Source: Psammoneis japonica (lineage: Eukaryota). Taken from it: a stretch of 64,000 bases of DNA. The position numbers and the translations under genes are program-made. The stretch's first letter is position 1. Each line of letters opens with the position of its first letter. Below are positions 1 to 37,399 of the stretch, in pieces. The stretch spans positions 1 through 64,000 of the forward strand of contig QPGO01000023.1 of the NCBI GenBank assembly GCA_008632985.1, read 5' to 3'. The notes under the pieces are model-generated. The model worked only from the letters and a program-made list of their open reading frames with translations, was not told where the DNA came from and did not search any database.

Positions 1-1290
1 CCGCGGGGCGCGGTCACGAATGATGTTTGCGGCACCGCAGTAACATCCATCGCACCGACTCTCACAACAACGACAAAAAAATTTCTAAACGCATGCTTGG
101 CTGATCAACTAGTTTGTTCGCCACCAAAAACAATGATGCTGCGTTGTTGCCACACAGACAACAACTTGGCATCCATTGCTCATGCAAATCCACTCCATCC
201 AAAAGCTTCTTCTTCCAGTCAGCCCAAAGCTGCACATCCCTCGCACACTCTGTTTTGCCATCACAGCTGCAGAGAGCAGCAGCAAGTTGTTTTCTCAACT
301 GCCAGCTCATCAACAACATTCTGCCCAAAGGCATGAAATGACTTGGAGTGCTCTTGTGGTTGTTTTGTGTCCACTCCTTCTCAACCAGAATCGCCAAAGA
401 GCCAATTTTTCGCGCAGACATTTCGCTGTCACCGTGGGCGGGCACGGTCACGAATGATGTTTTATGGCACGCAGCAACAGCCATCTCACTGACACTCACA
501 ATGATGACAAAAGAACCAATCAACCAGTTTGTTTGCTGCCAAAAACAATGATGCTGTGTTGTTGCCACAAAGACAACAACTTGGCATCTTGCTCGTGCAA
601 ATCCACACTCCATCCAAAAGCTTCTTCTTCCAGTCCAAGTGCAACACACAGCTGCTGATGAGAGTCAATGCATCACGGCGACGTGTTGCAGTCTTTAAAT
701 GTCACAAAGGGCGTGACAAAAACAACCTTTTGTCTGCATGCACACTGCGTTGTGAATTCACAGCGGAGTGGTTCATCGCAGCCATCAGGCAGGAGGCCAG
801 GGGTTCGAAACCCTGAGTGGGAGTTGTCTGCAGCAACGTTGATCACTGTCGAACGCGCAAAACTCTGTGCAGTTCTGCATGTTCCTTCGCACGCACCCAC
901 ACTGTTCCGCCAAAACTGTGCAGTGTCAGCACACGTTGGCAAAGAGCCGCATGGACGCGTGACACATGGGGAGGAGTGCAATGTGCAGCCGCTGACAGAG
1001 TCAACACATCACGGCGACGTGTTGCAGCCTTTAAATGTCACAAAGGGCATGACAAAAACAACCTTTTGTCTGCATGCATGCTGCACAAGACAACAGAAGG
1101 AGCCTGAAACTGTGCATCCCACACACACACTTTGTTTTGCCATCACAGCTGCTGCGAGCAGCAGCAAAATGTTTTCTCAACTGCCAGCTCATCAAAACAA
1201 CAGTCCAGCTGAAGGTGTGAAATGACCTGGAGTGCTCTTGTGGTTGTTTGTGTCTCCACTCCTTCTCAACCAGAATCGCCAAAGAGCAAA
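1..1290. repeat. Mosaic of degenerate direct repeats (TpA-depleted)
   Basis: 1-220 recurs at ~432-637; ~650-745 recurs at ~985-1085; ~230-390 recurs at ~1110-1285. Copies differ mainly by TA/CA, CG/TG and CA/TG swaps (gcagTAac vs gcagCAac; caacTAgtt vs caacCAgtt). Confidence 0.8.
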
Positions 1291-7436: not shown

Positions 7437-8372
7437 GTGCAGGCTTTCATGCAGACTGCACAACCTGGGAGGCAGCGAAGACGAGTGGCTCGAGCAAAGC
7501 ACCACACATCTGGAACAGGGTGCAGAAGCAGCAATTCGAAACTCACCCATGCCATCATTGAAAACGTTGAATTGCACGGTGCCACAGTGCTTTGTGGAGC
7601 CAAGTCCCAATGCGATTTTGAAGGAGGAAGTGAATCGTCTGTGGCATTTTGCTCCATCGCAGCTTCTCATCTCCTTCACTCCAATCCACAAGACGTCACG
7701 CTTGACATTGTTGAATCATTGATCAACCCGGCCCTCCTTGATCTTGCGATTGCCTGGGGGGTGAAAAGACATGGGTGGGCATGCCGTGGTCAATCGACTG
7801 TTGAAGAACTGCGGCCGAGTGATTTCTTCTACGAAGTTGATGGTCTCGAACGCGGGCCACTTGTTCAAAGTGGAACTGGGATTGGGCATTTCGGGAAAGT
7901 GCCCAAAGAGAGGGTGGCTGTTGCTGTTAGAAGTGCAAATGCATCCGATGCTGTGCTGTGCTTTGGGTGCAGTCAAAACAAGTGGTGTGTGATTGACAGC
8001 TGTGGCGAGAGCCGTTCACAGCCCAAGGCGGCACGCATTGTCAAGTGCCAGTCGACTGTGGCCCTTGCACTGGCGTTGATGTGTAAATTTCCAAAGCATG
8101 CAGCGGACACTTGGCAGACTCACATGGACAACTGTTTTGAAGCCACTCCCATTGCAGTGGCTGAGGAATGGGTTGAAACAACAGTGACGACGGCCCGCCG
8201 CAGTGGCACTGTGGATGCAGCAAAGCATTCACCAAACCTTGGTCCACTCCGATGGATCGACGGAAGAAAAGTGAACCCCTTTCATCCTGATGCGGACGAC
8301 ACCAAAGCGTCGTCACGAGAGCCTCGCCCCAAAGCACCAGCTGCCAGTGGCAGTCATGAAGCAGCTGGCTAG
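7437..8372 (+). pseudogene. Hypermutated ORF, possibly a herpes-tegument-like (VTD/peptidase C76-like) cysteine protease
   Basis: KSQCDFEGGSESSVAFCSIAAS...LLDLAIAWG...KWCVIDSCG loosely resembles the Q..C / LD...G / Y.FDSH pattern; lies in a TpA-depleted block. Confidence 0.3.
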
Positions 8373-11190
8373 AAACCCCAAGAGCCAAGCGTCCACGGAG
8401 GTGAATGAATGCAGTTCAACAGGTCCCCACTCCAATGAGAATGATGCAGCACCTGCAACCTTCACCCCTCTTCAAGGAAATGACCAACCTGCCACAAACA
8501 CCCAGAGCCAATTGCCCATGAACGCCAACAAATCCTTGTCTAAAGCGACCCATTCCAACGGGCACAATTCAATGACCAAGCCACCTGCAACCTTGATCCC
8601 TTCTCAAGGCAACAGACAAGCAGCAGAAAAGTTGGACTCCTCCTCCAAGACAAAGCCTGGCAATGACAAAGAGTGCGACGGGGAAGCATTCCGAAACAGC
8701 ACAGATGGCGCGACTGGAGCTGGAGCACCCCCCTTGAGAGTGTTCGAGATGGACATGTTCCAAGACCCAACGGCGCATTTTGTCATGGTGGACCCTGCAG
8801 TTTGTGCTTCCGGGATTGCACATGATCAAACAGCAATTGAGCAACACTTTGATTTGTGCCGCAAAGAAGAAGAGTTGCGAGTTCAAGAAGAACGTGAGGG
8901 ACCACAGGAAGGAGAAGAAGATGATCGCAGCATGAGCTGCTCGAGACCGCGTTCTGAAATCAAGCTCACTTGCCCTGTGACTCAACAGGTTGTCTCCAAC
9001 CTTCTCATTCCTGGCTGCTTTGTCAAAAAGCAGATTGTCAGTCTGGCTGAGGCTAATGTTCTGCCCATGTCAGCAGAGGAAAGGTCTGAGTGGAATGACC
9101 GGCATCACAAGAAGAAAGAAAATGATCGCCAACGGGCTGTGAGGGAACGCAAGGAAAAGGAGGCCCGCCGTCAAATGGCTCAGAACCAAGAGGAAGCTTG
9201 GGAATGCAGAGCAAAAGAGGAAGAAGCGGCTGTCAATGAGATGCCTTCTCTGAATGCCGCAGCTGTCTCACATGAAATGGTGCGACATGAAAGAAGCAAT
9301 GACCAGCTCCTGTCGGACTTGGACCTTGGTGTTTCCCTGGCCTTGTGCAAGAACACCACGCAGCAGCAGTCCAGCGGCAGCACGGACTGTCATTGTCAGG
9401 CAGCATGCTGCAAGATGAGGTTGACATCGGATGCCACCTTGTCGCGCACTCGCTGCACAAGAATGGCGTGCAAAAGATGTGTTGAGTTTGAAGTTTCCGA
9501 CTTTGCAGCAACACGCTCAAAGGAACTTCACAGAGTCTGTGCCAAGTGCATCATGCAGACAGTTGATGTGATGCCCAGAGAAGGATCAATGGGCGACACA
9601 AGAGCGTTCATCCTGAGGGAGTGCCTCCAGCCCTGCATTCGCAACATTGCTCAAGGAGTCATTGCATTCCAAGACTTGCAGGAAAAAGTGTGGGCTGACA
9701 ATGAATTTGGGCCAGCCACACTTGAGCTTGAGCACAACATTCAAAGGCTGCTTGGAGAAAGAAGCAGATTGGAAATTCAGCTGCGGCACTCCAAACAGCT
9801 TGAAGATGAGAAACGAGCCATCAAAGAGTGGGGGATTCGAACTGAAGTTGTTCAAGCCCAGCATGATGAAATCTTGGGTGGGCCGACACCACACAACAAA
9901 GGCAAAGAACCAGTCCACACCCAGGAAGTCTTCCGGACAATGCATCGTCTTGAAACTGCACAAAGAAATTTGACTGATGCAAAGGCACAACTTGCCAATG
10001 CGAAACGAAGAGCAGCTGCTTGAGTCATTGATGATCCAACGAGGAGCAGCGCACCCACTGCGGGTGGGCCAGCCTTTTCTTTGGCCGACGTTGAGGAAGT
10101 CGCGGCATTGTTGAGGAAAGCATGCACCATTCGCAGCAGTTGGGCTGATCGGAAAAGGACAAATGGACGCAACCATGCATCTAAAGCAACTGGCTCCACT
10201 GTCAAGAGTCGCAGCAAAGCAAAAGAAGCATCTCTCAGTGAGATTTTCAAAGCGAAAAAGCCAATCGGTGCTGCCGACGATAAGAGCAAGAAGAATGCCG
10301 GTGCTCCTGCCGTTTCAACACCTCTGTTTGCAGAGACATTTGTGCCAGAAGAACGGAGCAGCGAAGGTGGTCAGCTGAAGATTGAGACAGCAGCAGGTGA
10401 AAGAGCCGCGTCAACGTTGCTCGGCATTCACCACAGTGCAGGCATTTCTTCAACGAAACCATTGTTCAGTCCGATGTCTCTGACGTTGCAAGAAGACCCC
10501 AACTTTCTCACTGCGATTCAAAGCGTCAAGCCTTGCACCTTGCTTCCACTCAAGCTTGTGCATCCTCCGACTCGCATGAAGGCGGAACTGGATTTGTTGC
10601 AGAATGTGTTGGCACAGAATCTGCCTGCATCGCAACGTAAATGCGATGCCAAATGTCCCATGAAGTGTCACATCAAAACAGCTCAAAAGGAAGCGCTTTG
10701 GAGGATGAAATTGAAAAACTTGAAGCATCAGTGAAAAAGTCAACAGAGGCAGCGGAAGCAGAAGCGGAGCAAACGCGCCGAAAAGTGGAGCGGCAAGCTC
10801 GTCATGCAAAAGTGGAATCTGCTGAACGTGTCCGTGAGGAAGCTCGATTGAAGCAAGAAGAAGCGGCTCTCAAGGAAGCCAAGCTGTTGCACAAACGGCA
10901 TGCTTGTGAAGACGGAGCTGCTGCCAAGGCATTTGCTCAAGCTGTCGGCAAATCAAATGGCACCAAGGCCTTTGGTGGCAAGGGCAGCTTGAGAACGTGC
11001 AAACTGTGCAAGTGCGGTCCGATCGAGAACAAAGCTTGCGATGACCTCAAGTGTCACAACAATTCCTCAAACATGTGCAAGGGATTGGCTGTTGTGGTGA
11101 CTTGCAAGCTGAATCATTGTCCACACTGTGGTTGGTTTGCTTCCGATTGGGAGTCATGGCCGCACTGGGATGGCATTTTCGGTCCTCACC
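8290..11190 (+). pseudogene. Hypermutated U-box E3 ligase-like gene with Zn-finger and coiled-coil regions
   Basis: FQDPTAHFVMVDPAVCASGIAHDQTAIEQHF...LTCPVTQQVVSNLLIP is a U-box with His at the usual Tyr positions. Also a Cys cluster (CKRC...HRVCAKC) and a C-terminal CKLCKCGPIENKACDDL..H...NHCPHCGWF..W..WPHWDG motif. Broken by a stop at 10021-10023 and a frameshift near 10650. Confidence 0.65.
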
Positions 11191-12300
11191 AATCAAGCGC
11201 ATGTCATTTTGCTCATCTCATTGTTTTGAGAAATCTTGCTGTAGTTGCCTGCAAGTTCTCTGCACTCGTTCCATGTCAGACTTGAAGGTCAAGCATGATG
11301 ACAGATGGCATTGCTCGACTTTTTTTAAACAAGGACGAACAAGGCTGCCGTCGCTGGAGCGAAAGAGTTTTTGACAAGCACACTCATGCTTTCACCAGCA
11401 AAACCAAGGAACGTCTGCACAGACAATGAAATGCCGACTTGGTCTCTTTAGATTGTGCTGCATTTATCAAGGCACATCTTGACTGCTTGCATGTGGCACA
11501 GTGTGAACAACGCAACCTCCACTCTGCCTGATGCTGCACTCACAAATCATCATGAAACGACGAACGCCATTTTTTCATTTTCAATTTTTTTGGAAGATCC
11601 GGCCGTGCCGTGCGGACTGACTCCAACGGCACAAATTTAATGCACATGGGACTGTTTGTGACAAAAACTGTGAGTCAGCCGGGGCAGGGCTGTGGCAGTT
11701 GGTCACGCATGTTTGGGTTTGATGCAGCCGTGCAACTGGCCATGCCAGCACCTTGCAGGCAGAGCTGTGATGTTGATTGCACCATGACTTTTGGACCAAC
11801 TGTGTTCTTTTAAATGCCTGAAGAAATCTTCCATTTTGGCTGATGGACAGCGAGTGCACTTTTCAGAACAGTGTTTTGCAACTTCTCAGGTGGGTGTTGT
11901 CCACAGGACAGGGCTGGGCAACGGGAGCAGAAAAATGTCTTAGAGAGAGTGCGTGCATGCTGCAAAAAGAAAACACATGAGAGCGCAGTCTGGGGCGCAG
12001 CACCGGCGCTCACATCAGGAGCACAGGCACTTGCACAGCATTGTGGCAAGCAGCGCGCACGTGGAAACGGCCATTTCTTGCATTTCTCCCACCACCACCA
12101 CAAACATCATCAACACGGAGCACCTCCAACAATGGCTGTCACCGCTGAAAACGAGCATTGTGGATGTTGTGTTGATGCCATTGGGCCTGCTGTTGTCAAC
12201 CCAAAAACTGACTCACAATGAAAACAAATGAGAATGTTCTCTTGAGCCGAAATGTGTTTCTTCAATCTCACATTCTCAATGAGTGAATCAAATCGCTCCA

Positions 12301-12627
12301 GACGCGTTCCAGCTCTTGGTGGGACCTCATGCCACTGCACTGTGACATCAACAGTTTTTTGGATTGCGTTGCATGTCGCGCACGTGCATTTCTGCATGTT
12401 GCACTCTACGAAATTGTTTCATGCTCCCTGTTTTGCGAAGCTGAAGGCTTTCTGTTTTCAACATTCATGCTCCAAGCATGAAGGAGGAGATGTGTTCATA
12501 AAGTTGCCTCTTTTTCTGTTGGCAATCATTTGCATTTTCATTGCAGTGCAAATTTGCTGCGGAGCTTGCACGTGGAATTCTGTGGGCCCAATGTCACATG
12601 GAGTCCCACCTGGGACTGGAGCCTGTC
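12301..12627. mobile_element. MITE family A, copy 1 (~25-bp TIRs, 4-bp TSD TCCA)
   Basis: Begins GACGCGTTCCAGCTCTTGGTGGGAC and ends GTCCCACCTGGGACTGGAGCCTGTC; TCCA at 12297-12300 and 12628-12631. Confidence 0.8.
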
Positions 12628-12774
12628 TCCACTGCATTTGACGGAATCTGTTGATTCAATGTGTTTTTTGGTTTTCTCAACTTCTTGTTCTCCTCCAATC
12701 TTTGTCCATGTTTCTGCAGGAAAATGTCACATCATGCTGGGCGGCTCAAGTTGACACCACTTCAAATGGGGCCG

Positions 12775-13976
12775 GACGTGTCCCAGGTCCAGCAGGTGGG
12801 ACCTCGCACTGCTGAACTGTGACATCAACAGTTTTTTGAATCACGTCGTATGTCGTGCACATAGATTTCCACATGATTTTTTGACATTTTGTGTCATTTT
12901 ACGGTGCACTTAGACCCGTCGCACTCATGGCGGAGGGGTGCAATCAGGGGTGTAAAAACACACGTTGCACGTTTTTACACCCCTCAAAAAAAAATTGCAG
13001 CCAACAAACAGGCCACCAGAGGCATGCATTTTTTTCCTGCAAAAAATTCTGCGAGCCTGCAATTTTTCGTGCGAAAACAGACTCATCATCGTCCATGACG
13101 GCAGATGATGACATCAGAATTGTCGAACAACAATGGCAACCAACAATCAACAATGAACGTCAGTCAATGAGAGATGTGAAAAATTGTTGCTGGGGAGCTG
13201 TTGTGATGTGTTTGTGAAAGAAAGAACGGCAAAAAATGATGAGATTGAAGTCAACGGAGAACAAAATGATGGCAACTCCACACCTTTTCAGAAGAAAAAC
13301 ACGTCATGGGGTTGCTGACACCTTGGATGTGGATGCAGCAGTGACACACAATGTCAATCACGTCATTGCACATCGACTGGGCTTGTCAGAACAGTGTTTT
13401 GACATGTGTGAGGTCGCAGCGGAGCCGCCAAACGCCGTGGTGGTTTGATGCAGTCAATGGCATGTTCAACCTTGCGCACAGATGAGTTGATTAAAAATGG
13501 ACACATGGCGTTGTTCCTGATTGAGCATCAACATTTTTTCAGGAGCATGTGTTCAATGCACACATCATTGCTCGCAGAATTGCAGATGCCAAGTTTCGCA
13601 CTCTTGCACTCGTGCAAAAAATGGGTGCAATTTTGGTGTGTAAATTCGCGCGATGCGCGTTTTCACACCCCCAAATTACACCCCGAATTACACCCCAATT
13701 TCCATGAGCACGACGGGTCTCATTGAGCGATCCATCCAACAACTTTTGACATTTTTTGTCACAGCGCCATTCTGCAATGTCTCAAGAATCGCATGGGGCA
13801 GGCGCACTTGCAAAAACGTCGAGTGGTGAGAGGCACAATTGCACCACAAACTTGGCCGTTTGTTTGATGTTGAAGACAAATGTGCCCATCAATTAAATTC
13901 TTGTGCTACGGAGCTTGCACGCAGAATTCTGCGGGCCCAATGTCACACAGAGTCCCACCCAGGGCTGGAACACGTC
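12775..13976. mobile_element. MITE family A, copy 2, carrying a nested insertion
   Basis: Same TIRs (GACGTGTCCCAGG...GTGGGAC / GTCCCACCCAGGGCTGGAACACGTC); imperfect TSD GCCG/GGCG; internal sequence collinear with copy 3 once 12913-13719 is removed. Confidence 0.75.
12913..13719. mobile_element. Non-autonomous TIR element B (PIF/Harbinger-like by TSD), nested in MITE A
   Basis: TIR GACCCGTCGCACTCATGG / CCATGAGCACGACGGGTC, subterminal GGGGTGTAA / TTACACCCC repeats, 3-bp TSD TTA (12910-12912) / TCA (13720-13722). Confidence 0.7.
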
Positions 13977-13980
13977 GGCG

Positions 13981-14130
13981 GTTCAAGCGGGTGCCACATC
14001 ACATGAGGCACGAGGCAGCTCAAGCGGATGCCAACACCTTGCTGGGCGGCTCAAGTGGACACCTGCACCTCACTGGGTGACTCAAGTGGATGCCAACACC
14101 TTGCTGGGTGACTCAAGTGGATGCCAACAT
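13981..14130. repeat. 31-bp minisatellite (CTCAAGTGGATGCCAACACCTTGCTGGGTGA)
   Basis: CTCAAG anchors at 14019, 14050, 14081 and 14112; a related unit at ~12735-12774 lies on the other side of the MITE. Confidence 0.75.
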
Positions 14131-14976
14131 TGAATGTTGTGTGGAGTGGTCCAAGGGTGAGGAGCGTTCTTCATTTTAAAATCCACAATCTGCCACTTTT
14201 GGGAAAGTCCCGACACAAAGGGCAGACGAGGTTGCTCTTGTCTCTGATGATTGCGAGCAACTGTGCCAAGGCAGCTGACTGCAGTGGCACCTTGGCAATT
14301 TTTTTCTGCAAGACGGCCCATGAGAGCCAAGGGGTTGCTCCCCGGCGAGACTGAGAGTGGCACCTCCAAGGAAGGGGGTGCCACTCGACGTGCTGCAACC
14401 TGAACCTCAATCACACAGGGTTTGCCTGCCCTCAAAGGTGGTGATTGGTTGTTTTCAAGGAATGTGGCAGGACAGAAGGACAAAGCAGCTAGACTGGATT
14501 GATCTGCAGCACAGAGCGGTTGTCGAAAAGCTTGGATGGTCATTTGCAGCAGCGCTTCCAGATGCCTCTTCTCCTGCAGACGCTTGTCCATTTTCTTGTG
14601 CTTGCATGCCTTCTTACAAAGTCAATCTTGCATGACACCATTGACCAATCCAACATCTGAAAGACGTTGGGCACGGGAAAAAGCAGTGCAGGTCAAACCA
14701 TGCTGCTTCTCGCGGTTGGACAAATCCACGACAAAATGGGGCTTGATGGTTTGGCCTTGAGCTTTCCAAATGGTCATTGCCCAGCAAAGCTTCAAGGGCA
14801 ACACAGTGTGAGTGTGTTCATCACAGCCCACATCATCTTGCTTTTGAGTGCACACGGCTGCAGTCACAGGGTGAATTGGCACCCAACCTCGGCAACTGTC
14901 GTCGTCGGGAAAAAATGATCCTCCGCCACAGTCTCTGCTGAAGTCAACCCACACAAACTTTGGAAGAGATGGAGCC

Positions 14977-15550
14977 NNNNNNNNNNNNNNNNNNNNNNNN
15001 NNNNNNNNNNNNNNNNNNNNNNNNNNNNNNNNNNNNNNNNNNNNNNNNNNNNNNNNNNNNNNNNNNNNNNNNNNNNNNNNNNNNNNNNNNNNNNNNNNNN
15101 NNNNNNNNNNNNNNNNNNNNNNNNNNNNNNNNNNNNNNNNNNNNNNNNNNNNNNNNNNNNNNNNNNNNNNNNNNNNNNNNNNNNNNNNNNNNNNNNNNNN
15201 NNNNNNNNNNNNNNNNNNNNNNNNNNNNNNNNNNNNNNNNNNNNNNNNNNNNNNNNNNNNNNNNNNNNNNNNNNNNNNNNNNNNNNNNNNNNNNNNNNNN
15301 NNNNNNNNNNNNNNNNNNNNNNNNNNNNNNNNNNNNNNNNNNNNNNNNNNNNNNNNNNNNNNNNNNNNNNNNNNNNNNNNNNNNNNNNNNNNNNNNNNNN
15401 NNNNNNNNNNNNNNNNNNNNNNNNNNNNNNNNNNNNNNNNNNNNNNNNNNNNNNNNNNNNNNNNNNNNNNNNNNNNNNNNNNNNNNNNNNNNNNNNNNNN
15501 NNNNNNNNNNNNNNNNNNNNNNNNNNNNNNNNNNNNNNNNNNNNNNNNNN
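14977..15550. other. Assembly gap (N run) inside the Helitron helicase
   Basis: Run of n characters. Confidence 0.99.
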
Positions 15551-18500
15551 TTGACACCTTTGATTTCACGCAATCTCTGGTCAATGCAGCGAAGCTCTCT
15601 TTGACACAGCATCGAGAACTCAAGAATCAAAAGCTTGAGATTCGCAAACCCATCTTGAGCTTCAGCAAGATTTTTGTTCGTGAGAGGACGACAACATTTG
15701 CCAGAGAGGGGCATTCCCAGTCCTTCTTGGTGAGAGTGAACCGCAGATCTGCCAATGACCATCGCAGCCTTGCCTGTTGCAGCCACAAGAGCTCAGCTGC
15801 TTGTTGGAAGTCCACAGTCCCAGAGAGCAGCAGTGACAGCATCAACAGCAAATGATTTTCCTGCACCTCCCACCCCAACAAGGAGAACACACTGTCCCTC
15901 ACTTTCTCCAACAAGAGCACTTGCAATTGCATCATGAGCCAGACACTGTCATTCATTGAGCAAGTTGAAAGAAACTTGACTCCTTGCAGCTCGATCGACG
16001 GGGTCAGACATGAGATGATCACACTTTTGCTCCACTTCCTCGTCCCATCCATCACATTCTGGACAGCCATGCTTGAGTTCTGAAAAATCATGATCCTCTG
16101 ACCATTTGAGATTGCTTCCAGAAAGAGCTGGCACATCGTCCATTTGCGTGGCATGCCCAACATCCATCCAAGAGTCTTGGCTTGCATCCGTTGGACCAGA
16201 GTCCGAGTTGTCACCCATTGGCGCATCAACGTTGTCATTCACGCCATTCCTGTTGGGCAAGCGCAAGCTCGATTTAATCTCGCGTTGAAGGAAACCAGGA
16301 ATTTGTCGACCTTGTCACATCAGAAACAGAGCATGTTGGCTCCAAGCATGAATGATGTCATCATTGGATGCGTTGGCGCCACCCCAAGCAGATTCAAATG
16401 TGCCACTCCATGGTCAATGCTTGGTCAATGAGTGCTTGCAGCACTTGACAAAGTTGCGACCACCAGGAGCACTTGGAACTCGAGGTGCAAAAACAGCTGC
16501 CGTGTTTGGTTTCTGGTGGGGGCGGATTTTCTTCTTGTGCTCTCCGGACTTGCCAACGTAGAATCTGGTGGCAAATTCTTGTGGAGCAAGGTCTCTGAGT
16601 CCTGGCTCAAATGCTGCAAAAACTGAACAATCAGCCCAGGCTTCTTGGTTGAGGCATGCAGCATGTGCATCAACGACCGTCGGCATTGCAGCAGAATCCG
16701 CTCCTGCATCGGCGCCAACGTCTCCATCAGAAGGATCATCCGACTCCTCCAGGTCAACTTGCCTGGAGGCATTTTTGAGATTGACAGTGACAAAGGTGTG
16801 GGAGCAAGAGACAAGAGGCAAACTTAAAATGAGATGGCACGTCTCCTGTTTGGAAACCATTCGCTCGCCTGTTTGGGGTGACCATTTTGATTCATTCAAA
16901 GAATGAACAACACACTGTGAGTGGAAATGCAAAGTCACACAAGGATCAAATCAAAACTAGACACACCCAAAAGCTTGGCCATTGTGCTCTTCAACACTGC
17001 CTGTGCACTGCATCCATCATCGATTTTCTGCTCCACTGTTTTGCGAACCATTGCGGTCATTCGCATGGACATCATGCTGGATTCAGACTTGGAGACATGC
17101 TTGCTCATGTGCCAAAAACCTCACCGGCACATCTGCAACAAGTCGGAAATCAATGTTGGCTCTCCAAACCTCGAACACTGGGATGCAATGACTGTTGATC
17201 CACTTGTCGTTGCGTGCCGATGCCATTTCCATTCTTGAGACTTTTTGGGTCTCTCCAGCTTTGTTTTTGACAAGCTTCTCTAGAACAACCAGACGAGAAA
17301 TTCTTGAAAGATGCAAAGGATGTCCAAAGCAACAGTCCAAAATGTGTTCATCTGCTTTTGCCTTGTCGCACTTGGACTTGTTGCGGTCACAGCAGCCGCC
17401 GGGCTTGCATGCATGCCATTCCACCGTGTTGCACAGATTGCAGCAGTTGCCAGTGCGGTCATCTCTTGTCATCTCCAGCACATCTTGAGGCCTGTCATTG
17501 CTTGGGTGCACTCCGCCATCCACCCCGGGACAAAACTTGGTGGACTCCAGCCGCTCGTCGGATGCAGCATCTTCTGGAGGGCTGGGGTGAAACGCAGAGA
17601 CAAGAAAATCATCAAAGGTGACAACCATGTCTTGTGCCTCCTTTCCATCTCTGACAGCTTGCAGCATCTGTTCAAAAGAAAGCTCCTCGTCATCTTTGCA
17701 TTCAAACTCCTCTTCACACATGTCCAGTTCACAATCCTCCTTGGCAAAATCATCATCCTCATCCAGCGGACCTTGTTGGCACAGTTTCAAAGCAGCCAAT
17801 CTTCCTTCCAAAACAACCTGTGACAGGTCTGATGGCCCCGGGTCAGCCTCCAGTCGCAAACATCCGTGAACATGAGCAGCACCGCGGGCTTGGCATTCGA
17901 TCCAAAACCAAGTCCAGCTTGTTTTCATGCCATTCTTTCCAAAGAAGCTCTTCATCATCAAATTGACCCGTTCTTGAAAGAAGGCATCAACAATGTGAGG
18001 GTCATCTCGGACAGCCTTGCAATGACAACTGGCTTTCTCTTCTTCTGAAAACTCTTCACAGTCAGAGTTGCAAACCAACAAGGCACTGAGGTCCGCCCAG
18101 TGGTTGTCGGTGGCTGAAAGAGCAAACCACAATGTGGGCATTCCGCACTGGTCTGTCAGAGCCTTGAGCTCCTTCTTCTTCTTGCAGAAATGTGAGTCAC
18201 CACCTGGGACATTCGCGTTGAACTTTTGCATGTTGGAAACAATTTCTTTGAAGCGCGGCCCGTTCTCTTGCACTGCATGCTTCAGCTCTTCCTTGGTGAG
18301 CTGTGCATCTTCTGGGCACTTTTTTCGCAGGCACATTTTCTTTTGTTCCTGGTGACGATGTCGAGCAGCAGCAGAGCATTCTCGGCCCAATGCATCCACC
18401 GATTGTGGCGTGCAAACAGATGCACCCACTCTCCCTCCTCCTTGTTGTCAAAACAGGTGTGCTGAAGCAAGTGCTTGTTTGCCTCCACCATGGCCACGTT

Positions 18501-19192
18501 GATGCGGCGATCGTTGTGCATGACATCCCCATCGCCACGCGGGAAGAGAGTGGAAAAGGCCAGGCTTTGAAGCTGAGGAAAGGTGCAGTCATTGATGGGC
18601 TGGCCGTTGTTTCCAATCTCTTGGACGACGGAAGCAGGATCAAATTGATTGCGGAGAGTCTTTGAAATTTCGGCGTGCTGCTGACCTGGATGAGGGACAG
18701 ATGGCAGATGCCCAGATCGACATCCTCGCCCTCCTGTCCGCTTGCCCCACCTTGTTCTGGGCCACTGGCAGCAGCGTCTTGGTCCTCACTTGCATCACCT
18801 GCCAGCTCACTCTCATCTGAAATGGAAGAAATGGAGTCTGCCACTGAACCATCCTCTGGAAGAAGCAAAAGATTTTCCAGGTCAATGTCGACATCATGAT
18901 GGCCCAGATGATTTTCCTTCAGCCAGACAAGCCATTCTGTGACATTGTCGCAGCGAACCTGAAAGTCTTTGCATCCATTTGGTGTCCTTTGGTTTGGCTT
19001 TCAGAGGACAAAAACTGGCAAGTCAGAAACCTTGAGTGCGGCAGGCTCGCAATGACTTCATCTGTGTCCTTTTCAAGATTCACAACGGACCCTTTGTGCC
19101 CAACTTGCCCGGACTGAAGACGACAGCACTTCATGACAGTGTGAGCACAAGCAATGAGCATCTCTTCAACCTCAGATGGCTTGGGCAGGTGT

Positions 19193-19581
19193 GACGCATT
19201 CCAGGTCTAGGTGGGACCTCACACCACTGAACTGTGACATCGACAGTTTTTTGAATCGCGTCGCATGTCGCGCACATGCATTTCTACATGATTTTGGCAA
19301 AATTTTGTGTCATTTTATGGTGCAATTGTCAGGCAATCCATTCAACAACTTTTAACATTTTTTTCTTCTGCGCCATTCTCGAGTGTCTTAAGAATGGCAC
19401 AGGGCAGGCGCATCGTCCTAAACTTCGAGTACGAACAGGGATGTGTGCACCACAAACTTGGCCGTTTGTTTTGTGACGAAGACAAACACATCCATTGACC
19501 AGAGTACGAACTGCAGAGCTTGCACGTGGAATTCTGCGGGGCAAATGTCACAAAAAGTCCCACCTGGGACTGGAACCCGTC
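19193..19581. mobile_element. MITE family A, copy 3 (4-bp TSD GTGT), inserted in the Helitron ORF
   Basis: TIRs GACGCATTCCAGGTCTAGGTGGGAC / GTCCCACCTGGGACTGGAACCCGTC; GTGT at 19189-19192 and 19582-19585. Removing it restores the frame KGRPAH-LPKPSEVEEMLIA. Confidence 0.9.
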
Positions 19582-20603
19582 GTGTGCAGGACGTCCCTTG
19601 GCACAGATGTCCATGTCCTTTGCTGCAGAGAGACGACTCAAGCCATGCTCCTTGACATCCTTGGAGAACAAGCGAGGCACTGCTGCAGGTCTGACTTGTT
19701 CACGGTCATGTTGAACCAGCGCTTCTTGCAAGTGGCACACCGCATCATTTCTGTCTTTGAAACTCCGTCCACAAATTCATCTTGACAAGCTTTCACATGT
19801 GGGCCAGTCAAACAAGAGTGAGAACAATTGAAGAGCAAAGTGACAACAATCAACATCATGTCTCTTACATCGGGGTGGTCTTCCAGATTGACACCTGGAT
19901 GCCGGCCATCCCTGCAAGCTTCAAAACATTCATCAAGGGAAGAGGGTGGAACTGGAGGGTCATCAGAAGAGGACAAAGCAGATGACAATGATGAGGATGA
20001 GGATGAGGAGGAAGGGTCATCGTCCATCGATTGCCTTTTTTGTCTGTTTGCTTGTTTCGTTGCTTGGCGGTTTTGCAGTCTTGCTTCTGCCATTGACGTT
20101 CCTTTGAAAAATCTGGCTTCTGCACTTGATTGGCATTGTTGAGCCCTTGCAGTTTCTTGCCATTCTTGAGTTGACAGGTTTTCTTGTGCTTGTGCTCAAG
20201 ATTGCTCCTTCCTTCCATTCGCAACTCTGTGATTGTTGGTGGAGGAATCAATGGCAGCTGGCAGATCTGGATGAGCAAGAACAGATGAAGCAGAGTCATG
20301 AGCAAAAAAATTCGACAAAGTGGGACCAACAAAATGGAAACACTTGCGACTCAAAGTGCGCTGTCATTTCACCTCTCTGTCGGAAGAATCGTCAATGGCA
20401 CCAGCCACTTGTCAAGTTCTGTGTCGAAACTTGGGATCAGTGATGTTTGAAACCTCCAAATCTTGCATTGATGAAATCTCAATGTGATTGACGGGAAGAG
20501 CAAACTCGGGATGTCTGCTGAGATGCCGGGTGTCACACTCTCGCTTTTGCTGCTTGACGTCTTTTGCGGCTTGATCCTCCGCTCAGCACTCAGCACGTCT
20601 CTT

Positions 20604-21170
20604 TCAGTTTCGTTCTCTTCTGCACTGTGCAGAGGTTGAAAACAAATCGGGGGTTCCAAATGCTGCATCCTGCGATCCATGAGAATGGCGCTCATGTGGC
20701 AATCCAAAATGTGTGTGTGGCGGCATGTGATGGGGAGCAGGAGGTGGACGAAAGCAAGGAGCCGACATCCAATGATTGTGGGGAGGAGACAAAAAAGCTT
20801 GAGCCGGAGCATGCTGGCATCCAAAATTGGGCACACCCGGCAGCATCATGAAAGCATCACAGGGGCGACAGTTCCTCACATCGAGAGAGCCATGAACGAC
20901 AGGAAGAGAAAAAGCAACACCATTTTGAATGCACTTGCTCCACTCATCAATCAAAGAAGCTTGAGATTTGGCAGAATGGGTCGATGCGGGCGATGCAGGT
21001 TCTGGAGCTTCCGGCGGAGTGTCGGGTCCATCAGAAAAGAGTGCCTTCTCAACAAGCTCTTGCTCCTTTGGATCTGTTGCAGCTTGTCCCACCAGACGAC
21101 GAGTGGTCACAGGAAAGGAAGCAAAAGAAAAGAGGAGGACAAGTGCAGATGCAATGGGTGCAATCTTCAT
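20604..21170 (-). pseudogene. Tyr-free ORF remnant with a signal-peptide-like start, upstream of the Helitron (possible cargo)
   Basis: MKIAPIASALVLLFSFASF... followed by a Pro/Ala-rich linker; same strand as RepHel; TpA-depleted. Confidence 0.3.
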
Positions 21171-21588
21171 CGTGTCGAAAGCGATGTCGAGACGAGACGA
21201 TGAGTTTTGTGTTTGATGGGATTTTGTTTTCCATGGGAAAAGTGAGTGGTGAGACCTCGTTTCAATCAAGAGCCAGCAGGCACGAAAATTGCCAGGTGCG
21301 GCTGTGCGTGGTTGAGTGTTCATTGAAATGTGCGCAGAATCCTGCTGAAATCAAGCTGAGCTCCATTTTGCCGACAGCTGCTCTGTTTTGCCTGCAGTGT
21401 CATGTTTCACCACATCCAATCTGAAGATGTTTTGAGAAGCGCTTCGGGGCGACTCTGTTCGGACCGTTGAAAAGAAATTTTTTTGTTCAGATTCGAAAAT
21501 TTGTTTCGGGGTGTTCCTCACTTTTTTGAATGGTTGCATGTGTGCTCACAAAAATCACAAGAAAATTTTATGTTGTGCAAAAGCCTCA

Positions 21589-22776
21589 GGGACACACGGC
21601 ATTTTGTCGCCAATTGCGACATTCCCACAAATGAATTGGATGATTTGTCGTGAAAAACGCCCTTTGAGACAAATTTCAACCGTTGGCGATAAACAAGACA
21701 AAATCATCATTTAATTGGCGATGGCGTGTCCCAAACACACACGTTGCATCAACTGCAGTGCCACATGATGAATTTAACTTTCGGCGAAGACTGCACTTGT
21801 TAATTGGTGTTTTGGCGATTTTGTCGTACGTGCGACAAATTTTGTCGGAAACGACAAATTTTGTCGGATACGACAAATTTTGTCGGATGTACGACAAATT
21901 TTGTCGGACGTACGACAAATTTTGTCGTATCCGACAAACCCCGACAAACCCCGACAAGCCCCGACAAACCCCGACAAGCCCCGACAAACCCCGACAAACC
22001 CCGACAACGTACGACAAACGCCGACAAGAGCCGACAAGAGCCGACAAACGCCGACAGACGGACGTTTGCGACACGCCGACAACGCAACGCTCCCCAACAT
22101 TCAGAAGTGCCCAGTCGCACTGACAAAAGGTGCAGTGCAGCAACACACACCGGTGCATTCCGTTGCACTGTGTAGAAGTGTTGTTGTCCCGGTATTGACG
22201 AGAGTATGGAGACCGCCGAGAGCGGCATGATCGTCGCTTTGCATCATCGCGCAAAAGAGACATGCCGGTAGTGTCAACGGAGACGTTAGCGGTTAGCGTG
22301 TGCGGGGGGCGTGGGTGTTTCGTTCGTGTCGTGACGTGTCGTGACGTGTCGTGTCGTGTCGTGTCTTGTCGTGTCGTGTCGTGTCTTGTCGTGTCGTGTC
22401 GTGTCGTGTCTTGTCGTGTCGTGTCGTGTCGTGTCGTGTCGTGTCGTGTCTTGTCGTGTCGTGTCGTGTCGTGTCGTGTCTTGTCGTATGCCGACAAATA
22501 CGACAAATTTTGTCGTATACGACAAATTTTGTCGGATGAATTTTCGTCGATGACATCGATCGCCAAATTCTGTTAATTACCCCACTTATTGAAACGACAT
22601 CGCCAAAGTTCAGGTTGGTTATAAATGACATTAATCATTTTATAACTTAATTAAACAATGTTTCTGTCCCGTTTATCGCCAACCCGGACATTTTGTCGCA
22701 ATTCGCGTCTTTTCGCGACAAATCATCAATTCATTTAAGAAAATGTCGCCAAATGCGACAAAATGCCGTGTGTCCC
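21589..22776. mobile_element. Foldback-like non-autonomous element with ~130-bp imperfect TIRs and internal CGACA/TGTCG arrays
   Basis: GGGACACACGGCATTTTGTCGC at 21589 and its reverse complement ending at 22776. CGACAAATTTTGTCG near-palindromes and CCCCGACAAA repeats at 21830-22080; (GTGTC)n/TTGTC array at 22325-22490. Confidence 0.8.
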
Positions 22777-23260
22777 AGAGACCGACATAAACACATGTTC
22801 CATGTAGACCACGTACCGGTAGATTGTGCACCGGCGGAAATCCACCGCATGTCAACTCACTCAGTGGTAATTCTACGTACAGGCTCTCCGGAGCCTGGGG
22901 GTTAGGGCCTCGGTGAGCGCCGGTTACCGCGTACATCAGTACCAAAACCTACGCAGGCCCTTTCTACTTAATGCAGGACATCATTCAATTATAGACGATG
23001 AAAGAACATTTATTGATGACTTTTCAGTCACGATCAAAAAATGTCCGACAGTTTCACGTGACCCCTGACACTTAAGTGATCCGATGACGCGACGTTAAAT
23101 GTTGTGAGACAACAAAAGCAGCGGCTTGACCGGCTTTTAGCCTTTCTTCTGGTACATTTTTCACTGGGGGTCTACACGGGAGGATGGAAAAAATTGAAAA
23201 CAAAAAATGCAGGGGCTATAGAGTTACAAAAACACAAAAAACACTCGACCTCCTTCAACC

Positions 23261-25312
23261 TCACACATCTTCCGATGGGAGAGGTTGGATGCGACGCGAT
23301 CTTTTCTTCGGTCCTTGGGAGCGGTCGACCTTACGGCGCTTGGTATCACTAGATTGAGCCTTGGAAGTATCATACAATTGTCTGAGTGACATAGTACCTC
23401 TCTCCTCGTCAATCAGCCTTGCAGATTCCTGGAGTACAGCGGCACGGTCTGAAAAACCACGCACTCGCTCAGACCGTTTCAGAATCAAGCCATACAGGTA
23501 TGAACGACGACTGAGCTGCATAGTGACCCCACCCTGCCAATTCTTTTTGCTCACTCCTTTGTACTGTTCCAACTGAAACTCCAGGTGCTCCTCCAACAAT
23601 TTGGTCATTGTCTTTGGCATTTCTTTTGGAAAGTATGGTTGAGTAGCACCTGACGGCGGCGGAGGCAGATGCTGAACGATGCGCGAGCGAGTTGGATTCG
23701 AATCCAATACGGTACGTGTCTGAATCGCATTCCGACTACTCACAGCCATTCTGATGCTCTGCATCTGCTCACGTTGCTGCTGTTGTTGCTGCTGGTTTTG
23801 CCTCAGAATAATGTTAGTGAAATTTTGAACTTCTGCTGACAGTCGATCCATTTTCCCAACCAGAACCTGTGTATCGGTACGAACCGAGGAGAAAGCTGTC
23901 TGCACAGCAATGTTCAGATTTTGAATCTCGTCTTCTTCTGCAGTGTCCATATCAGCCAACTCTTGAAGCCTGTCCCTTGCCCACTCAATGTACCTGCCGC
24001 CAAAAACACGAACCAATAGACGGGATACTTCGTGCTGCGGATACTCCGTGACCCAGTGGATACCGTCTTGGCACAGGACGCGAGCGAAAAAAGGTAAGGT
24101 CCCATATAAAAAGTTTGTACCGCATGGCCACTTACGACCAACATTGTGTTGCTGTTTCCATGCAGGCAGTCTTGGCCATGTCATCTCTGCCAACTCAGTA
24201 TCAGCAACGTTTGGTTTTCCGGGAACTAGTTCGCCGAAGGATATGTTGGTACGAGGGACGTAGTAAACCTTCTCCCCATGCAGCTTAGAGAACCCGGCGG
24301 CAATCAACTGCACTTGTGGAGGGATCTCAGGCAAGTGTGAGACGTCAAGTGAATCTTTTCCATGTTTCGTCTGCTGCTCAATATTTTGCTTGGTCGCCCC
24401 GCCCATGTTGCTAGAATCGATGCCGGCGGTGCGAAGGTGAGTACACTTTGCCCACGACGTCTTTGTTGCCCTGTACACCCGTTGGCATGCCTTACGGTGC
24501 GTGTCTAATGTTTTCCAACCCACTAGTTCATACTTGTACCAGTCCGGGAAACCGTCATGTTGATGTATGAAGTGGATTTCCGTATCGCTATGAAACCTGC
24601 AGGCGGCGACGGCGGCGTTCATACCGGTTCCGCATCGCTTCCAGTCGCGGTGCCGCCACATGCCTGCAACTCTTTTTTTGTGGGAACCTCGTTTGCCTGT
24701 AAACCGTTGCTCAATCAGAGCTATCATTGGACGTGCGACCGATTCGTTTGGGTTGCCGGGGCCGTGAGTTTCGTCACAGTGAACATCCGCATAGCGTGTA
24801 AGTCGGAGCTGATCGCCTCGTATCATGGTCTGGCTGCAGCTGGTCCATGACACTACCAAGTTCTTCCAAGCAGCAGATTGAATAATATAATTCAATATCT
24901 TATCCTCAGCAACACGAGACAGAGTATCCGTAGGCAGCTTGTCATGAGCTGATACAAACGTAGTGAGCAAATTTTGGGTGTATCGCTCCTTGTGTGCCAC
25001 CAGAGCGATGTCAACTGCCTCTGATCTCACAACGAATTTTGGATTGGGAGGTTTGTGCTCCTCCCAAGATGAATAATGCTGCAGTGACCAAATGACACGC
25101 TTGGCCGACTTCGGCGTGACGTCTCGTTTCGACACTGCCTCCAAGAAGCACCGGTCGACCTGGTCTCGCGTCAAGCAAGGCGGCCCCGACAGAGCCGGCG
25201 ATTCATCCACCCACCTTTTGCATGCATTCCACTCAGTGACACAAGTGCCATCCACCTTGGGTGGTGTGATGGTTTGGGCCAACAAGTCTCCTGTGGAGAC
25301 CTGAGACGCCAT
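23261..25312 (-). mobile_element. Crypton-type tyrosine recombinase (NDC10-II-like domain plus GCR1_C-like C-terminus); predicted catalytic Tyr reads His
   Basis: MIRGDQLR, WRHRDWKRCG, KCTHLRTAG...IEQQTKH...SLDVSHLPEIP..QLIAAGF....YYVPR, FARVLCQDG; C-terminal LSRRSYLYGLI...IDEERGTMSLRQL. Intronless open frame. Confidence 0.8.
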
Positions 25313-26044
25313 CTTGGGTCTGTTCTGCTCATTATGATAGCCTCGAGGGATCGTCTTTTGGGGTGCACCCACCTTACTATCAAAAGAAAAGAGGTTTTTG
25401 AAATCAAACGCTCACTTATGGCGTTCGATAAGTGGAGTCGTTTCGAATCATGTTGACATTCGAGTGGGAAGAAAGAACATTTCGATAAGTGGATTTTATG
25501 TCTTGTCCTGTTCTGAAGGTTCTTATCTTCACTAACCACAGGCCTATCCGGGGTCCGGGAACCGGTTCCGGGGTTGGTTCCGGCGCCGGCCTCCTACGGG
25601 CAGGAACCACTGAGGACTCCCCCCGGTTAGCGCGGTTAACCCGTGACGTCAGGGGGAAGCGCGCCCCCCAATCAGCGGTGGTTATTCCTGTTAACCGGTG
25701 TCGCGCGACCGTATGTTCTACACACCTCGCACATGCACACACACCTACAGCCAGTCTAATAACCACGCACTACGTGCGCGAGATGAATGACGTCACTTCT
25801 GTCATGTCTTGCGAACACCAAATTTTCAACTGCCAGCTGTTCTGCTTCACCGCACGCTTGCACGCGCGATGGCGGGTGTCGATCCGGTGCCGCCGGATGC
25901 TCGTCGCGAGTGCTGCCAATGAACTTCCCGAACTGCTGTGTCCTGTGTCCTATGCATTCACTTTCTGATAAGTCGACTATCTAATAGAGTAGCTGCTCTC
26001 TCTTGAATGCACTGAATCATAGAAAAGTGATAGGACTTGGATCA

Positions 26045-28093
26045 ATGATAAATTCCTCTGAAACAAACGATGAAGAATCAACAACAACAGAAATGTTCTT
26101 TTCTTCACGCCATCAATCCCATCAACAGCAGAAGGATATTATGTTGACGATACCGAGTCATGGAAGACAGAATAAAGACGAGACTGAAGTTTGTAGCAGA
26201 TGCTATGCTATACCAAAGAAGCGAAAAGTGAACAGATTCGTGTTACTTTTGGGATTGGCGTCATTCTTCTCCCGCACGAATGCTCTTTTGGTACCTCGAA
26301 ACAACCATGTCAAACATTCCAGAAAAGTGTTTATTGGTCCGCTCGGAGACATGGGAAAGAACAAAACGACACGATTGTCTACTGCAGAAAAGAACGCCAC
26401 CTTATCATCTCGAAAGAAAAAGACGACGGGTTTTCTATTTTTTAATAAGAAATCCGATACACAACTCGGGGCGATCGTGGAGAGTACTTCTAGCAACGAG
26501 ACGAGTGAACAACAGCAGCAGCAGCAGCAGCTCATCGAGACATCATCACCTCCGGACCAACAACAGCAGCAGCAGAAACAAACGGTTCCTACCGAGAGTG
26601 TGCATTTAAAGTTAGGTTCACAAGCCATGATGGCAAGAGCAGACGATGCACAAAACGATCAGGAAGAGCATACGGACGAGAATACGCAAAAGGCGGCAGC
26701 GACAGCCGTATTGCACGTGTACCGAGATCCGGTTTCGAATCGCGTCCTTTTAAAGGGTTTCAACATGACGAGACGCAAGTTCTGTGCATGGGTCAATTAC
26801 ACTCTGGCTTTGGAAGATAAACCCTTTGATGATTCCTTTGTGTCAACGGAAACTATTCAAGTCAACGACGAAGAAGTCAAGAATGATTTGAGAAAGCTGT
26901 GGAAAGAAAGACGTCTCTTGAGCGAACGGACTGAAATTTTAGCAGTCTACAAGAGCGACAAGCAAGAAACATCATCATCATCATCCTCTCATCGTGAAGG
27001 TACTTTCAAAAGGGGTGGCTTTCCCGACTTGTTGCATTTGTACGCAGAACGACTTGCTGCCATTATTCAAGACGAACTGGAAGAAGAACAAATTGCCAAG
27101 GGTCAATTGAAGGTATTCAATGATACGACGCATGGTCAAGAAGAACGACCCATTCCGGAGGAATTGCTAGAGATTCTAAACGGCGGCTTGTTGGGATGGC
27201 TCGAGAGAGAATACGGTGTCCCGGAAACGAAAAAGCTGAGTGCCAAGCACTTCCAGACATTGTCAGAAACGAAGCAATTCGAAGTTCTTCAGCATTTTAT
27301 GGATTGGTTTCGTAGTCGCTTCCCTTACTATTATGACCGTTGTGACCACTGTGGGGCTTCTGCAAAGGACGAACCAGAACCAGCTCAAGCTGAAAACGAC
27401 CAACCTACCAGTGACGACGAAGACGAAGAGGAGGAAGATACGTCTTCCTTTTTGGGATATGTCTATCCAACTCAAGAAGAGCTCATTGGAAAGGCGAGTC
27501 GTACAGAGATTTATCAATGTCAAAAGTGTGGGGGCTTTACGCGCTTTCCACGCTACAACTCCGCATCTTCCATTATCAATAACAAACGCGGGCGTTGTGG
27601 GGAGTACAGTATGCTGCTCTTTCGGCTCTTGCGTGCGACAGGACATGAGGCACGGTGGATTGTCGACTGGGCGGATCATGTGTGGGCCGAGGTTCGCTTG
27701 GGTGCAAGATGGATTCATCTTGGTACGAACTAGTATTTTCAGGTTTTCTGTCTCAAGACTTGCTGGTAGCAAGAATTCCTCTCACCACTCTCTCTTTTCT
27801 TATATTCTTGTTTAGATCCATGCGAAGCTGCGGTGGATAAACCTCTTTTGTATCAGGAATGGGGGAAACAACAAACGTACATTGTCGCTTTTCGTGCCCC
27901 TCGTCAGTCTTCTACGAAAGCTGATACGAGACACGACTCTTCGCCTTTAATAGAAGATGTCACGTCCAAATACACAAGCGACCATGTTGATGAGATACAA
28001 AAACGCAGAGATGAATCGTCTGGTGACGTTCAAACAACGGTCGGTAAAATCACAAACGACTTGGAGCTACTTCTCAAAAACATATTGCAGTAG
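26045..28093 (+). CDS. Peptide:N-glycanase (PNGase, transglutaminase-like core); intron 27723-27815
   Basis: CDHC and CQKC Zn ligands, TRFPRYN, RGRCGEYS, DWADHVWAEV. A GT-AG intron joins WIHL-DPCEAAVDKPLLYQEWGK. Start codon uncertain. Confidence 0.88.
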
Positions 28094-37084: not shown

Positions 37085-37399
37085 GATTTTTAACAAAGAG
37101 TAGAGTGTGTGAAGGCCTTATTTTCAAAACTTCATCAAGACTAGAGGAGTCTTGGTGGTGATGAGAACGAACAACTTTGTTGATTTTAGGCGTTGTTCAG
37201 AAGGTCGACGAGGATAAAGGGTGAATAAGACGGATCGATCGACTGTGCCATTGTGTGTTGCTGCGATGCCCATACGATGCGATGCTTGCTCTGCTGGTTT
37301 TTTCTGCGCCGGGCCTTTTTGGGTGTGCGAGCCGCACTGGGCACAGCGCGCGCACAACTCGCAAAATGTCGGCGCGGCAGATTTTGACCGAGACCCCTG

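Follow-up and report, generated by a model that had tools for sequence, protein, structure and literature searches.

Two described systems lie closest to the locus reported here. One is the CryptonS group of transposons, described from oomycetes and a diatom (Kojima & Jurka 2011, PMC3212892); in the parts of that paper used here, the terminal direct repeats of CryptonS elements are 5-6 bp long and read TATGG in most. The other is the TpA-specific hypermutation of the chlorarachniophyte Bigelowiella natans. According to the preprint sections used here, two integrated viral regions acquired 231 de novo mutations in mutation-accumulation lines, of which 230 were A to G or T to C, each of the 230 on TpA; TpA-depleted clusters in that genome are enriched for transposon domains, and the authors proposed that an adenine deaminase of the ADAT2-like kind acts on the DNA (Mettrop et al. 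2026, bioRxiv 10.64898/2026.01.13.699255). Hypermutation from TpA to TpG or CpA has so far been reported only in that 2026 preprint, and our literature search found no paper on TpA-specific loss in diatom repeats. Here we describe a CryptonS-like element in a 64,000-nucleotide stretch from the diatom Psammoneis japonica (GenBank assembly GCA_008632985.1, contig QPGO01000023.1, positions 1 to 64,000 of the forward strand; the window). The recombinase gene of this element has probably been edited by TpA-specific transitions, a process that would have run to completion on older elements in the same genome.

Results

The open reading frame (ORF) at 23261..25312 is the recombinase gene of a CryptonS-like DNA transposon in a diatom genome. 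It lies on the minus strand and has 683 codons plus a stop, with no internal stop; its protein, P0001, contains 17 tyrosines, 12 cysteines and 22 histidines. P0001 by itself matched the Pfam domain NDC10_II (PF16787) at 15.1 bits (E=0.012), below the gathering cut-off of 26.3 bits. An initial sequence search gave four relatives, 39-46% identical to P0001, and a profile made from these four found 1,033 proteins at E<=1e-3, including 164 at E<=1e-30. We aligned P0001 with 74 relatives, and the family counts given below refer to these 75 sequences. At E<=0.01, NDC10_II was matched by 57 of the 75 (best 1e-17) and Phage_int_SAM_4, an N-terminal SAM-like integrase domain, by six. GCR1_C was not found for the 75 members at E<=0.01, nor among the best 25 of 74 families at E<=5. 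Assignment to CryptonF or CryptonS is not certain, because GCR1_C is annotated on 56-71% of the members of two neighbouring Atlas clusters.

The predicted structure is that of a tyrosine recombinase. An AlphaFold2 model of P0001 (mean predicted local distance difference test score, pLDDT, 88.5) has the two-domain fold, with an N-terminal core-binding domain and a catalytic domain, and the C-terminal helices (residues 569-653) are confidently modelled and align across the family. The top Foldseek matches of the model were Ndc10, Cre, Flp, IntI and Tn1549 Int. Structural Z scores (VIA; residues 11-349) were 17.8 over 271 residues for Ndc10, 15.6 for Flp and 11.2 for Cre, and all 50 structural matches listed for the model were tyrosine recombinases or proteins of the same fold. 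When solved structures were searched by sequence with the family profile, only coiled-coil noise came up (E 0.3-0.5). A first-pass annotation, made from the letters of the window alone, had called this open, tyrosine-containing frame a Crypton recombinase, and the family profile, the fold matches and the retained catalytic residues (below) bear it out. Of the domains that it proposed to search for, NDC10_II is present in most of the family, with P0001 itself under the cut-off, and GCR1_C was not found at the thresholds given above.

The nucleophile of the recombinase is histidine in this copy. Codon 326 (24335..24337, minus strand) is CAC, in the context SLDVS-H-LPEIP. The corresponding column holds Tyr in 74 of 74 relatives and His in P0001 alone, and a reversal from CA to TA (CAC to TAC) gives the Tyr back. 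The codon lies inside a TA-free gap of 96 nt (24286-24382), the third-largest TA gap of the element. The spacing of P0001 R294-(23)-H317-(9)-326 equals that of R292, W315 and Y324 in Cre, and a structural alignment of the model to Cre (11..321 versus 19..319) has an offset of +2 that puts residue 326 on Cre 324. We also looked at whether the catalytic Tyr might align to another residue, and found that it does not.

The remaining catalytic residues are unchanged. R165 (24818-24820), K207 (24692-24694), H292 (24437-24439), R294 (24431-24433) and H317 (24362-24364), spread over 24362..24820 on the minus strand, fall in columns conserved in 67-74 of the 74 relatives; their catalytic roles were assigned from spacing and from Cre numbering. 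K207 lies between predicted strands at 196-201 and 214-218, and P0001 has the motif H-x-R where the superfamily has H-x-x-R. Judged from its sequence, P0001 is a mutated tyrosine recombinase by descent and not an active enzyme. The protein probably folds and binds DNA yet cannot cleave it; if so, this copy would be non-autonomous rather than domesticated.

Changes of the TpA type are over-represented among the departures of P0001 from its family. We tested every possible single transition in the ORF against the family alignment, and took the consensus as restored where at least 40% of the relatives had the new residue and no more than 10% the current one. This held for thirteen transitions. 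Eight were reversals from TG or CA to TA, out of 148 non-synonymous testable ones, versus five among 1,007 other transitions (odds ratio 11.5, p=4.5e-5). The eight reversals turn Cys24, Cys46, Cys55, Cys276, His326 and His419 into Tyr, and Ala59 and Ala216, both with GCA codons of the type GTA to GCA, into Val. P0001 has Cys or His at six of nine Tyr-dominated family columns; in the other 74 sequences this is so for four of 605 such cells, with no sequence having more than one.

Four of the eight changes lie in a patch at the 5' end of the gene that is devoid of TA, and four are scattered. The clustered ones, within 25136..25243 (minus strand) in the N-terminal SAM-like core-binding domain, are Tyr to Cys at codons 24 (TGT), 46 (TGC) and 55 (TGC) and Val to Ala at codon 59 (GCA). 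The relatives have Tyr in 63 of 64 sequences at the column of C24, Tyr in 43 of 64 and Phe in 13 more at that of C46, and Tyr in 47 of 65 and Phe in 17 more at that of C55; a further cysteine, C31, stands in a Phe/Tyr column (43 Phe and 20 Tyr among the relatives). The scattered changes are codon 326 and, over 24056..24667 on the minus strand, codon 216 (GCA, Val to Ala, 24665-24667), which is inside a TA gap of 78 nt, codon 276 (TGC, Tyr to Cys, 24485-24487) and codon 419 (CAC, Tyr to His, 24056-24058).

The 5' patch stands out in length and has sharp edges. The first 300 nt of the ORF contain one TA, an observed/expected (o/e) ratio of 0.07, versus 0.39-0.83 in the remaining 300-nt windows of the ORF. 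The TA-free patch itself (25075..25332) covers the 5' end of the ORF and 20 nt upstream, and is bounded by TAs at 25074 and 25333. This run of 259 nt is adjoined by a gap of 93 nt (24981-25074), giving 352 nt with one TA where, from the density in the rest of the element, about 14-15 would be expected. None of the other TA-to-TA gaps (1,242 in all) in the roughly 30 kb of the window that is not depleted is as long as this run, and when the 104 TAs of the element were placed at random, a gap this long had P=0.0045. The patch holds 24 CA, 24 TG and 16 CG, so CpG is not depleted there, and immediately upstream there are 4 TA per 100 nt. For the whole element, the o/e ratio was 0.60 for TA and 0.93 for CpG, as in host genes. 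The first-pass annotation had noted His at the nucleophile, a TA-poor N-terminal region of about 300 bp with suspicious cysteines, and possibly clustered editing, and each of these observations stands: the patch with its four changes and the gaps around codons 326 and 216 show a patchy distribution.

P0001 keeps 17 tyrosines; from the family median of about 3.3%, roughly 22-23 would be expected. Few non-conserved tyrosines thus seem to have been lost despite the changes at six of nine conserved columns, which could be due to detection bias, context preference or clustering.

Several relatives of P0001 carry the same kind of change. These proteins (P0276, P0087, P0028 and P0134) come from public protein collections and not from the other copies in this genome. 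P0276 (748 amino acids, 52% identical to P0001) keeps the nucleophilic Tyr and has His in the Tyr24 column. P0087 and P0028, at 97% identity to P0276, depart from it at 13 of 456 aligned residues: Tyr>His four times, Ile>Thr twice, Val>Ala once, His/Cys once, Thr>Ala twice, and Arg>Cys, Pro>Ala and Arg>Leu once each. Eight of these 13 differences are within-codon TA-type changes, and the two Thr>Ala differences are possibly cross-codon ones. P0134 has His at the nucleophile, as P0001 does, along with further changes of Tyr to Cys or His. The first-pass annotation had proposed to check whether differences between paralogues are nearly all of the TA type; at the level of protein, in these sequences from public collections, 8-10 of 13 are. 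Because their frames stay open, edited, dead transposases are predicted as proteins.

About half of the window has lost nearly every TA. TA-poor blocks at 1-4500, 7000-21500, 37200-43400, 47900-53000 and 63000-64000 (about 30 kb) have TA o/e of 0.03-0.10, CA and TG o/e of 1.5-1.9, and CpG o/e of 0.12-0.61. They alternate sharply with gene regions in which TA o/e is 0.56-0.70 and CpG is near 1. The gene regions carry a PNGase-like gene, an aldo-keto reductase, an ankyrin protein, a ubiquitin hydrolase, a fucosyltransferase, a sulfatase, Mak16 and an HSF-domain protein; every host gene with a Pfam domain is in a region of normal TA, and the blocks hold a Helitron and unannotated frames. The named best matches of the Mak16 protein were all from diatoms (Eucampia, Ditylum, Fistulifera, Pseudo-nitzschia, Cylindrotheca and Epithemia), at 74-81% identity, whereas an Atlas search with Mak16 pointed to no useful taxon. 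The long host ORFs without interruption also speak against B. natans, an intron-rich species, as the source.

Coding content in the blocks follows the loss of TA. Each block has 4-26 TAA and TAG stops together versus 11-194 TGA, and Tyr makes up 0.08% of residues in the 40 open frames of at least 150 codons within blocks, versus 2.23% in 29 frames outside. The Helitron remnant (17086-19000, minus strand; Helitron_like_N, E=2.5e-22, and DUF6570) is in a TA-free block and has a frame that is open for 454 codons with no Tyr, 28 Cys and 17 His, its HUH motif still readable. It looks like the final outcome of a process that is still at its start in the Crypton. There is also a stretch of 574 N (14977-15550) inside a TA-free block.

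Few of the differences between copies of an old block were clearly of the TA type. We examined 40 of 525 reported differences between the window and a paralogue at 20.6-23.0 kb. In 12 of these the window had CA or TG versus CG; ten were CA versus TG, one was CA or TG versus TA, one was CG versus CA or TG, and 16 were other differences. Pairs of CA and TG are ambiguous here, since the ancestor could have been TA or CG. Both copies are already TA-free and are still diverging at CpG. The pattern fits TpA loss that is faster and earlier than CpG decay, and is by itself no proof of TpA editing.

As bounded by a candidate empty site, the Crypton element is 2,834 bp long (22876..25709, minus strand), with 397 bp before the ATG, the ORF, and 385 bp after it. 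These limits come from contigs of two runs (X1 and X2) of one sample, which we compared with positions 20500-27500 of the window at a likeness of at least 80%. One X1 contig of 10,892 nt matches the unique flank (25710-27500) exactly, and in it just six other letters separate 25710 from 22875. This contig, without 22876-25709, is a candidate empty-site allele. The joint may alternatively mark an internal-deletion allele of a larger repeat, because as far as about 25880 the depth is higher than for single-copy DNA. A candidate terminal direct repeat of 4 bp, CGTA, was read at the contig joint (22876..22879, plus strand, with its second copy at 25710-25713, immediately beyond the right end). Neither end of the element has TATGG, which occurs 48 times in the window versus 46.7 expected by chance. 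The element has one recombinase ORF and no further frame of at least 150 codons within its 2,834 bp, and no long terminal repeats were found at it.

The Crypton has relatives in the sample, including diverged ones. Word depth was 56.5 in the unique flank (25882-27500) and summed to 645-2,244 across the ORF, where, by a caveat of the tool, summed contig depth is no copy number. The ORF pieces listed include four diverged ones (40-90 differences in 346-643 nt), one with an internal deletion of 1,010 nt, and an identical piece of 391 nt (23244-23634) with a word depth of 580, about ten times that of the flank. A tblastn search of the window with five family proteins found this ORF alone and no further copy, and scans of metagenome contigs with the family alignment and with P0002 gave no confirmed locus.

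Run X2 shows features of a transcriptome, although it is not recorded as RNA: it covers the PNGase-like gene from 25920 and leaves intergenic DNA uncovered. X2 contigs skip five segments of 72-95 nt inside the Crypton ORF (23495-24526), on the plus strand and so antisense to the gene. These segments carry good plus-strand splice-site consensus, four GT..AG and one GC..AG, and one X2 piece crosses one of the five unspliced. There may be spliced antisense transcription of the Crypton family. We considered an antisense coding gene for the spliced plus-strand form and rejected it; the longest open stretch is 148 codons, and each frame has 7-17 stops. X2 has no cover at 24946-25881 (parts of the ORF and upstream), which is no evidence of silence.

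The Crypton is flanked by a repeat and a host gene. A foldback repeat, like a terminal inverted repeat element, adjoins it at 21585-22780, and has inverted arms of 54-64 nt that lie about 1 kb from each other; it also contains arrays of 10-bp units and CGACAAATTTTGTCG palindromes. This repeat is CpG-rich (o/e 1.7) with a TA o/e of 0.40, and its summed contig depth was 3,000-5,000 versus 56.5 in unique DNA. On the other side, the PNGase-like host gene (26045-27733, plus strand; Transglut_core, E=2.1e-13) has a long N-terminal extension with runs of poly-Gln; its frame continues past 27733, and the C-terminus may be beyond an intron.

Discussion

We propose that TpA-specific transitions (TpA to TpG, and on the other strand TpA to CpA) made the Tyr to Cys, Tyr to His and Val to Ala changes of P0001, a step with good support in the comparison with the family. 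The same process would have stripped the older transposon blocks, about half of the window, of nearly all their TAs. This Crypton copy would be at an early stage: the 5' end of its gene carries one dense tract of about 260-350 nt, and there are a few short ones in other places.

The chemistry of such a process has consequences for reading frames. Both Tyr codons, TAT and TAC, contain TpA, so the process erases tyrosines, and enzymes with a tyrosine nucleophile are guaranteed casualties. It destroys TAA and TAG, and it makes no premature stop, because a change of A to G after T only turns TAA into TGA and no stop codon contains C. Since it cannot create stops, an open frame is evidence neither of youth nor of selection. 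The first-pass annotation had taken the element to be young, with TpA editing ahead of all other decay. The normal CpG (0.93) and the TA content (0.60), both like those of host genes, agree with this; the open frame, on which it also leaned, says nothing about age. The case for a young element thus depends on the normal CpG and on one contig joint, the short side of which is 30 nt.

Several observations weigh against editing of this copy as we describe it. The TA o/e of the whole element equals that of host genes, so the bulk of the element shows no sign of editing. The direction of change, from TA to TG or CA, comes from protein conservation and was not observed as such. The exact-match contig pieces listed all miss codon 326, so that CAC there rests on one data set. 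The comparison used the proteins of relatives, and His326 and the cysteines may be shared with sister copies in this genome or be older than the insertion. With its 30-nt short side and 6-nt filler, the empty-site joint is not a clean pre-insertion site. The old-block differences (12 of 40 of CpG type, 10 of 40 ambiguous) document CpG decay better than TpA editing. Finally, the deaminase mechanism is only proposed, in any organism. Taking these points together with the results above, we still regard TpA-specific editing of the Crypton, carried to completion on older elements, as the probable explanation.

The edits might be older than the insertion. His326 and Cys24, Cys46 and Cys55 would then mark a sublineage that is non-autonomous and that active relatives had copied or moved in trans, a history that we consider possible, if on the unlikely side. 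An enzyme inactivated by His326 could not have moved itself, and the depth of the identical piece at 23244-23634 (580 versus 56.5) suggests about ten near-identical copies. However, this piece spans no edited codon, summed contig depth is no copy number, and the evidence on copies includes no sister-copy sequence at codons 24-59 or 326.

A different origin could apply to the 5' patch alone, if gene conversion brought it in from a paralogue that had been heavily edited. In favour of this, the edges of the patch are sharp (just upstream of it there are 4 TA per 100 nt), and the family has edited relatives. We think gene conversion improbable nonetheless: the patch shows no depletion of CpG (16 CG in 257 nt), whereas old edited blocks are CpG-poor; there is no donor within the window; and the four edits outside the patch require events in place anyway.

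Domestication would account for a dead recombinase with a full-length open frame. The first-pass annotation had offered as its alternative a domesticated, catalytically dead Crypton, as with the fungal derivatives of the Ndc10/Gcr1 type. As a host gene of that type or of the DUF3504 type, it would have kept DNA binding and lost catalysis. In favour of this, the frame is full length and unbroken, the confidence of the fold prediction is high, the nucleophile is gone with the DNA-binding parts apparently intact, and Ndc10 is the best structural match. Yet the Tyr is the sole catalytic residue to have gone, with the other five still in place; DUF3504 proteins lack most of the catalytic tetrad, according to the parts of Kojima & Jurka (PMC3212892) used here. 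His326 is unique among the 75 members, there are diverged paralogous pieces as well as the identical 391-nt piece at about ten times the flank depth, and one contig is without the whole 2,834 bp. The gene is placed between the foldback repeat and transposon debris, and its open frame is accounted for by TpA-editing chemistry. Based on these results, we set the domestication proposal aside as very improbable.

Ordinary neutral point mutation, with the Tyr losses and the TA gap arising by chance and no TpA-specific process, is hardly credible: merely eight changes were assigned to the TA class and the overall TA content of the element is normal, but this explanation has to face the odds ratio of 11.5 (p=4.5e-5), Cys or His at 6 of 9 conserved Tyr columns versus 4 of 605 cells in relatives, the TA gap at P=0.0045, and neighbouring blocks at TA o/e 0.03-0.10.

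If TpA-specific editing is the correct explanation, hypermutation of TpA to TpG and CpA also works in a diatom, on ordinary transposons, and to completion. The lightly edited Crypton would show the size of tracts, the mix of strands and the order of events, with loss of TpA preceding both the loss of CpG and any indel. In such genomes an open frame would be uninformative on function, and gene predictors will call dead transposases proteins; several Tyr-poor, Cys- and His-rich relatives are already in public protein sets. The property of removing tyrosines yet never creating stops is not spelled out in the sections of the B. natans preprint used here. A family with unedited, lightly edited and saturated copies would be a concrete test system for finding the editing enzyme.

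A broader reading would join these observations, and we offer it as speculation that is unlikely to hold. A TpA-editing defence in diatoms would turn transposases with tyrosine nucleophiles (the Crypton recombinase and the Helitron Rep) into full-length, DNA-binding, dead proteins, which might act as dominant negatives on their own family. Tracts would be about 100-350 nt long, the first dense one at the 5' end of the transcription unit.

Comparison with known systems

The comparison with CryptonS was made on features, and in these the element resembles that group. As in the CryptonS elements of the published sections used here, the host is a stramenopile, and the element is small, without long terminal repeats, with a single tyrosine-recombinase ORF, no GCR1_C and a conserved C-terminal region. 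Its candidate terminal direct repeat is likewise short, but reads CGTA (4 bp) and not the TATGG of most CryptonS, and this copy differs in having His at the nucleophile.

Recombinase folds without a working nucleophile are also found in Ndc10/Cbf2 and Gcr1 of budding yeasts and in animal DUF3504 genes. Unlike these single-copy host genes, the gene described here has five of six catalytic residues intact and behaves as a multi-copy, polymorphic insertion.

Fungal repeat-induced point mutation (RIP) likewise consists of transitions in a dinucleotide context that are confined to repeats and inactivate transposons. RIP changes C to T mostly at CpA, enriches TpA and creates stop codons. Unlike in RIP, in the window TpA is destroyed and there is an excess of CpA and TpG; the blocks have hardly any TAA or TAG, and the change cannot produce stops. 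We considered RIP as the cause of the pattern in the window and rejected it on these grounds.

The closest match is the hypermutation of B. natans, as far as it is set out in the preprint sections used here. Both have TpA as the target and TpG and CpA as products, both are confined to foreign or selfish DNA, and in both there is long-term depletion of TpA with enrichment of CpA and TpG. The two systems differ in host, a diatom here and a chlorarachniophyte there, and here the targets are cellular transposons (Crypton and Helitron). They also differ in extent: the nucleocytoplasmic large DNA virus region of B. natans has an o/e of 0.45, whereas depletion here is nearly complete (o/e 0.03-0.10), in blocks of 5-14 kb. 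Unlike in those sections, TpA loss here is accompanied by depletion of CpG. In B. natans the process was observed as de novo mutation; in P. japonica it was read from the sequence that it appears to have left behind.

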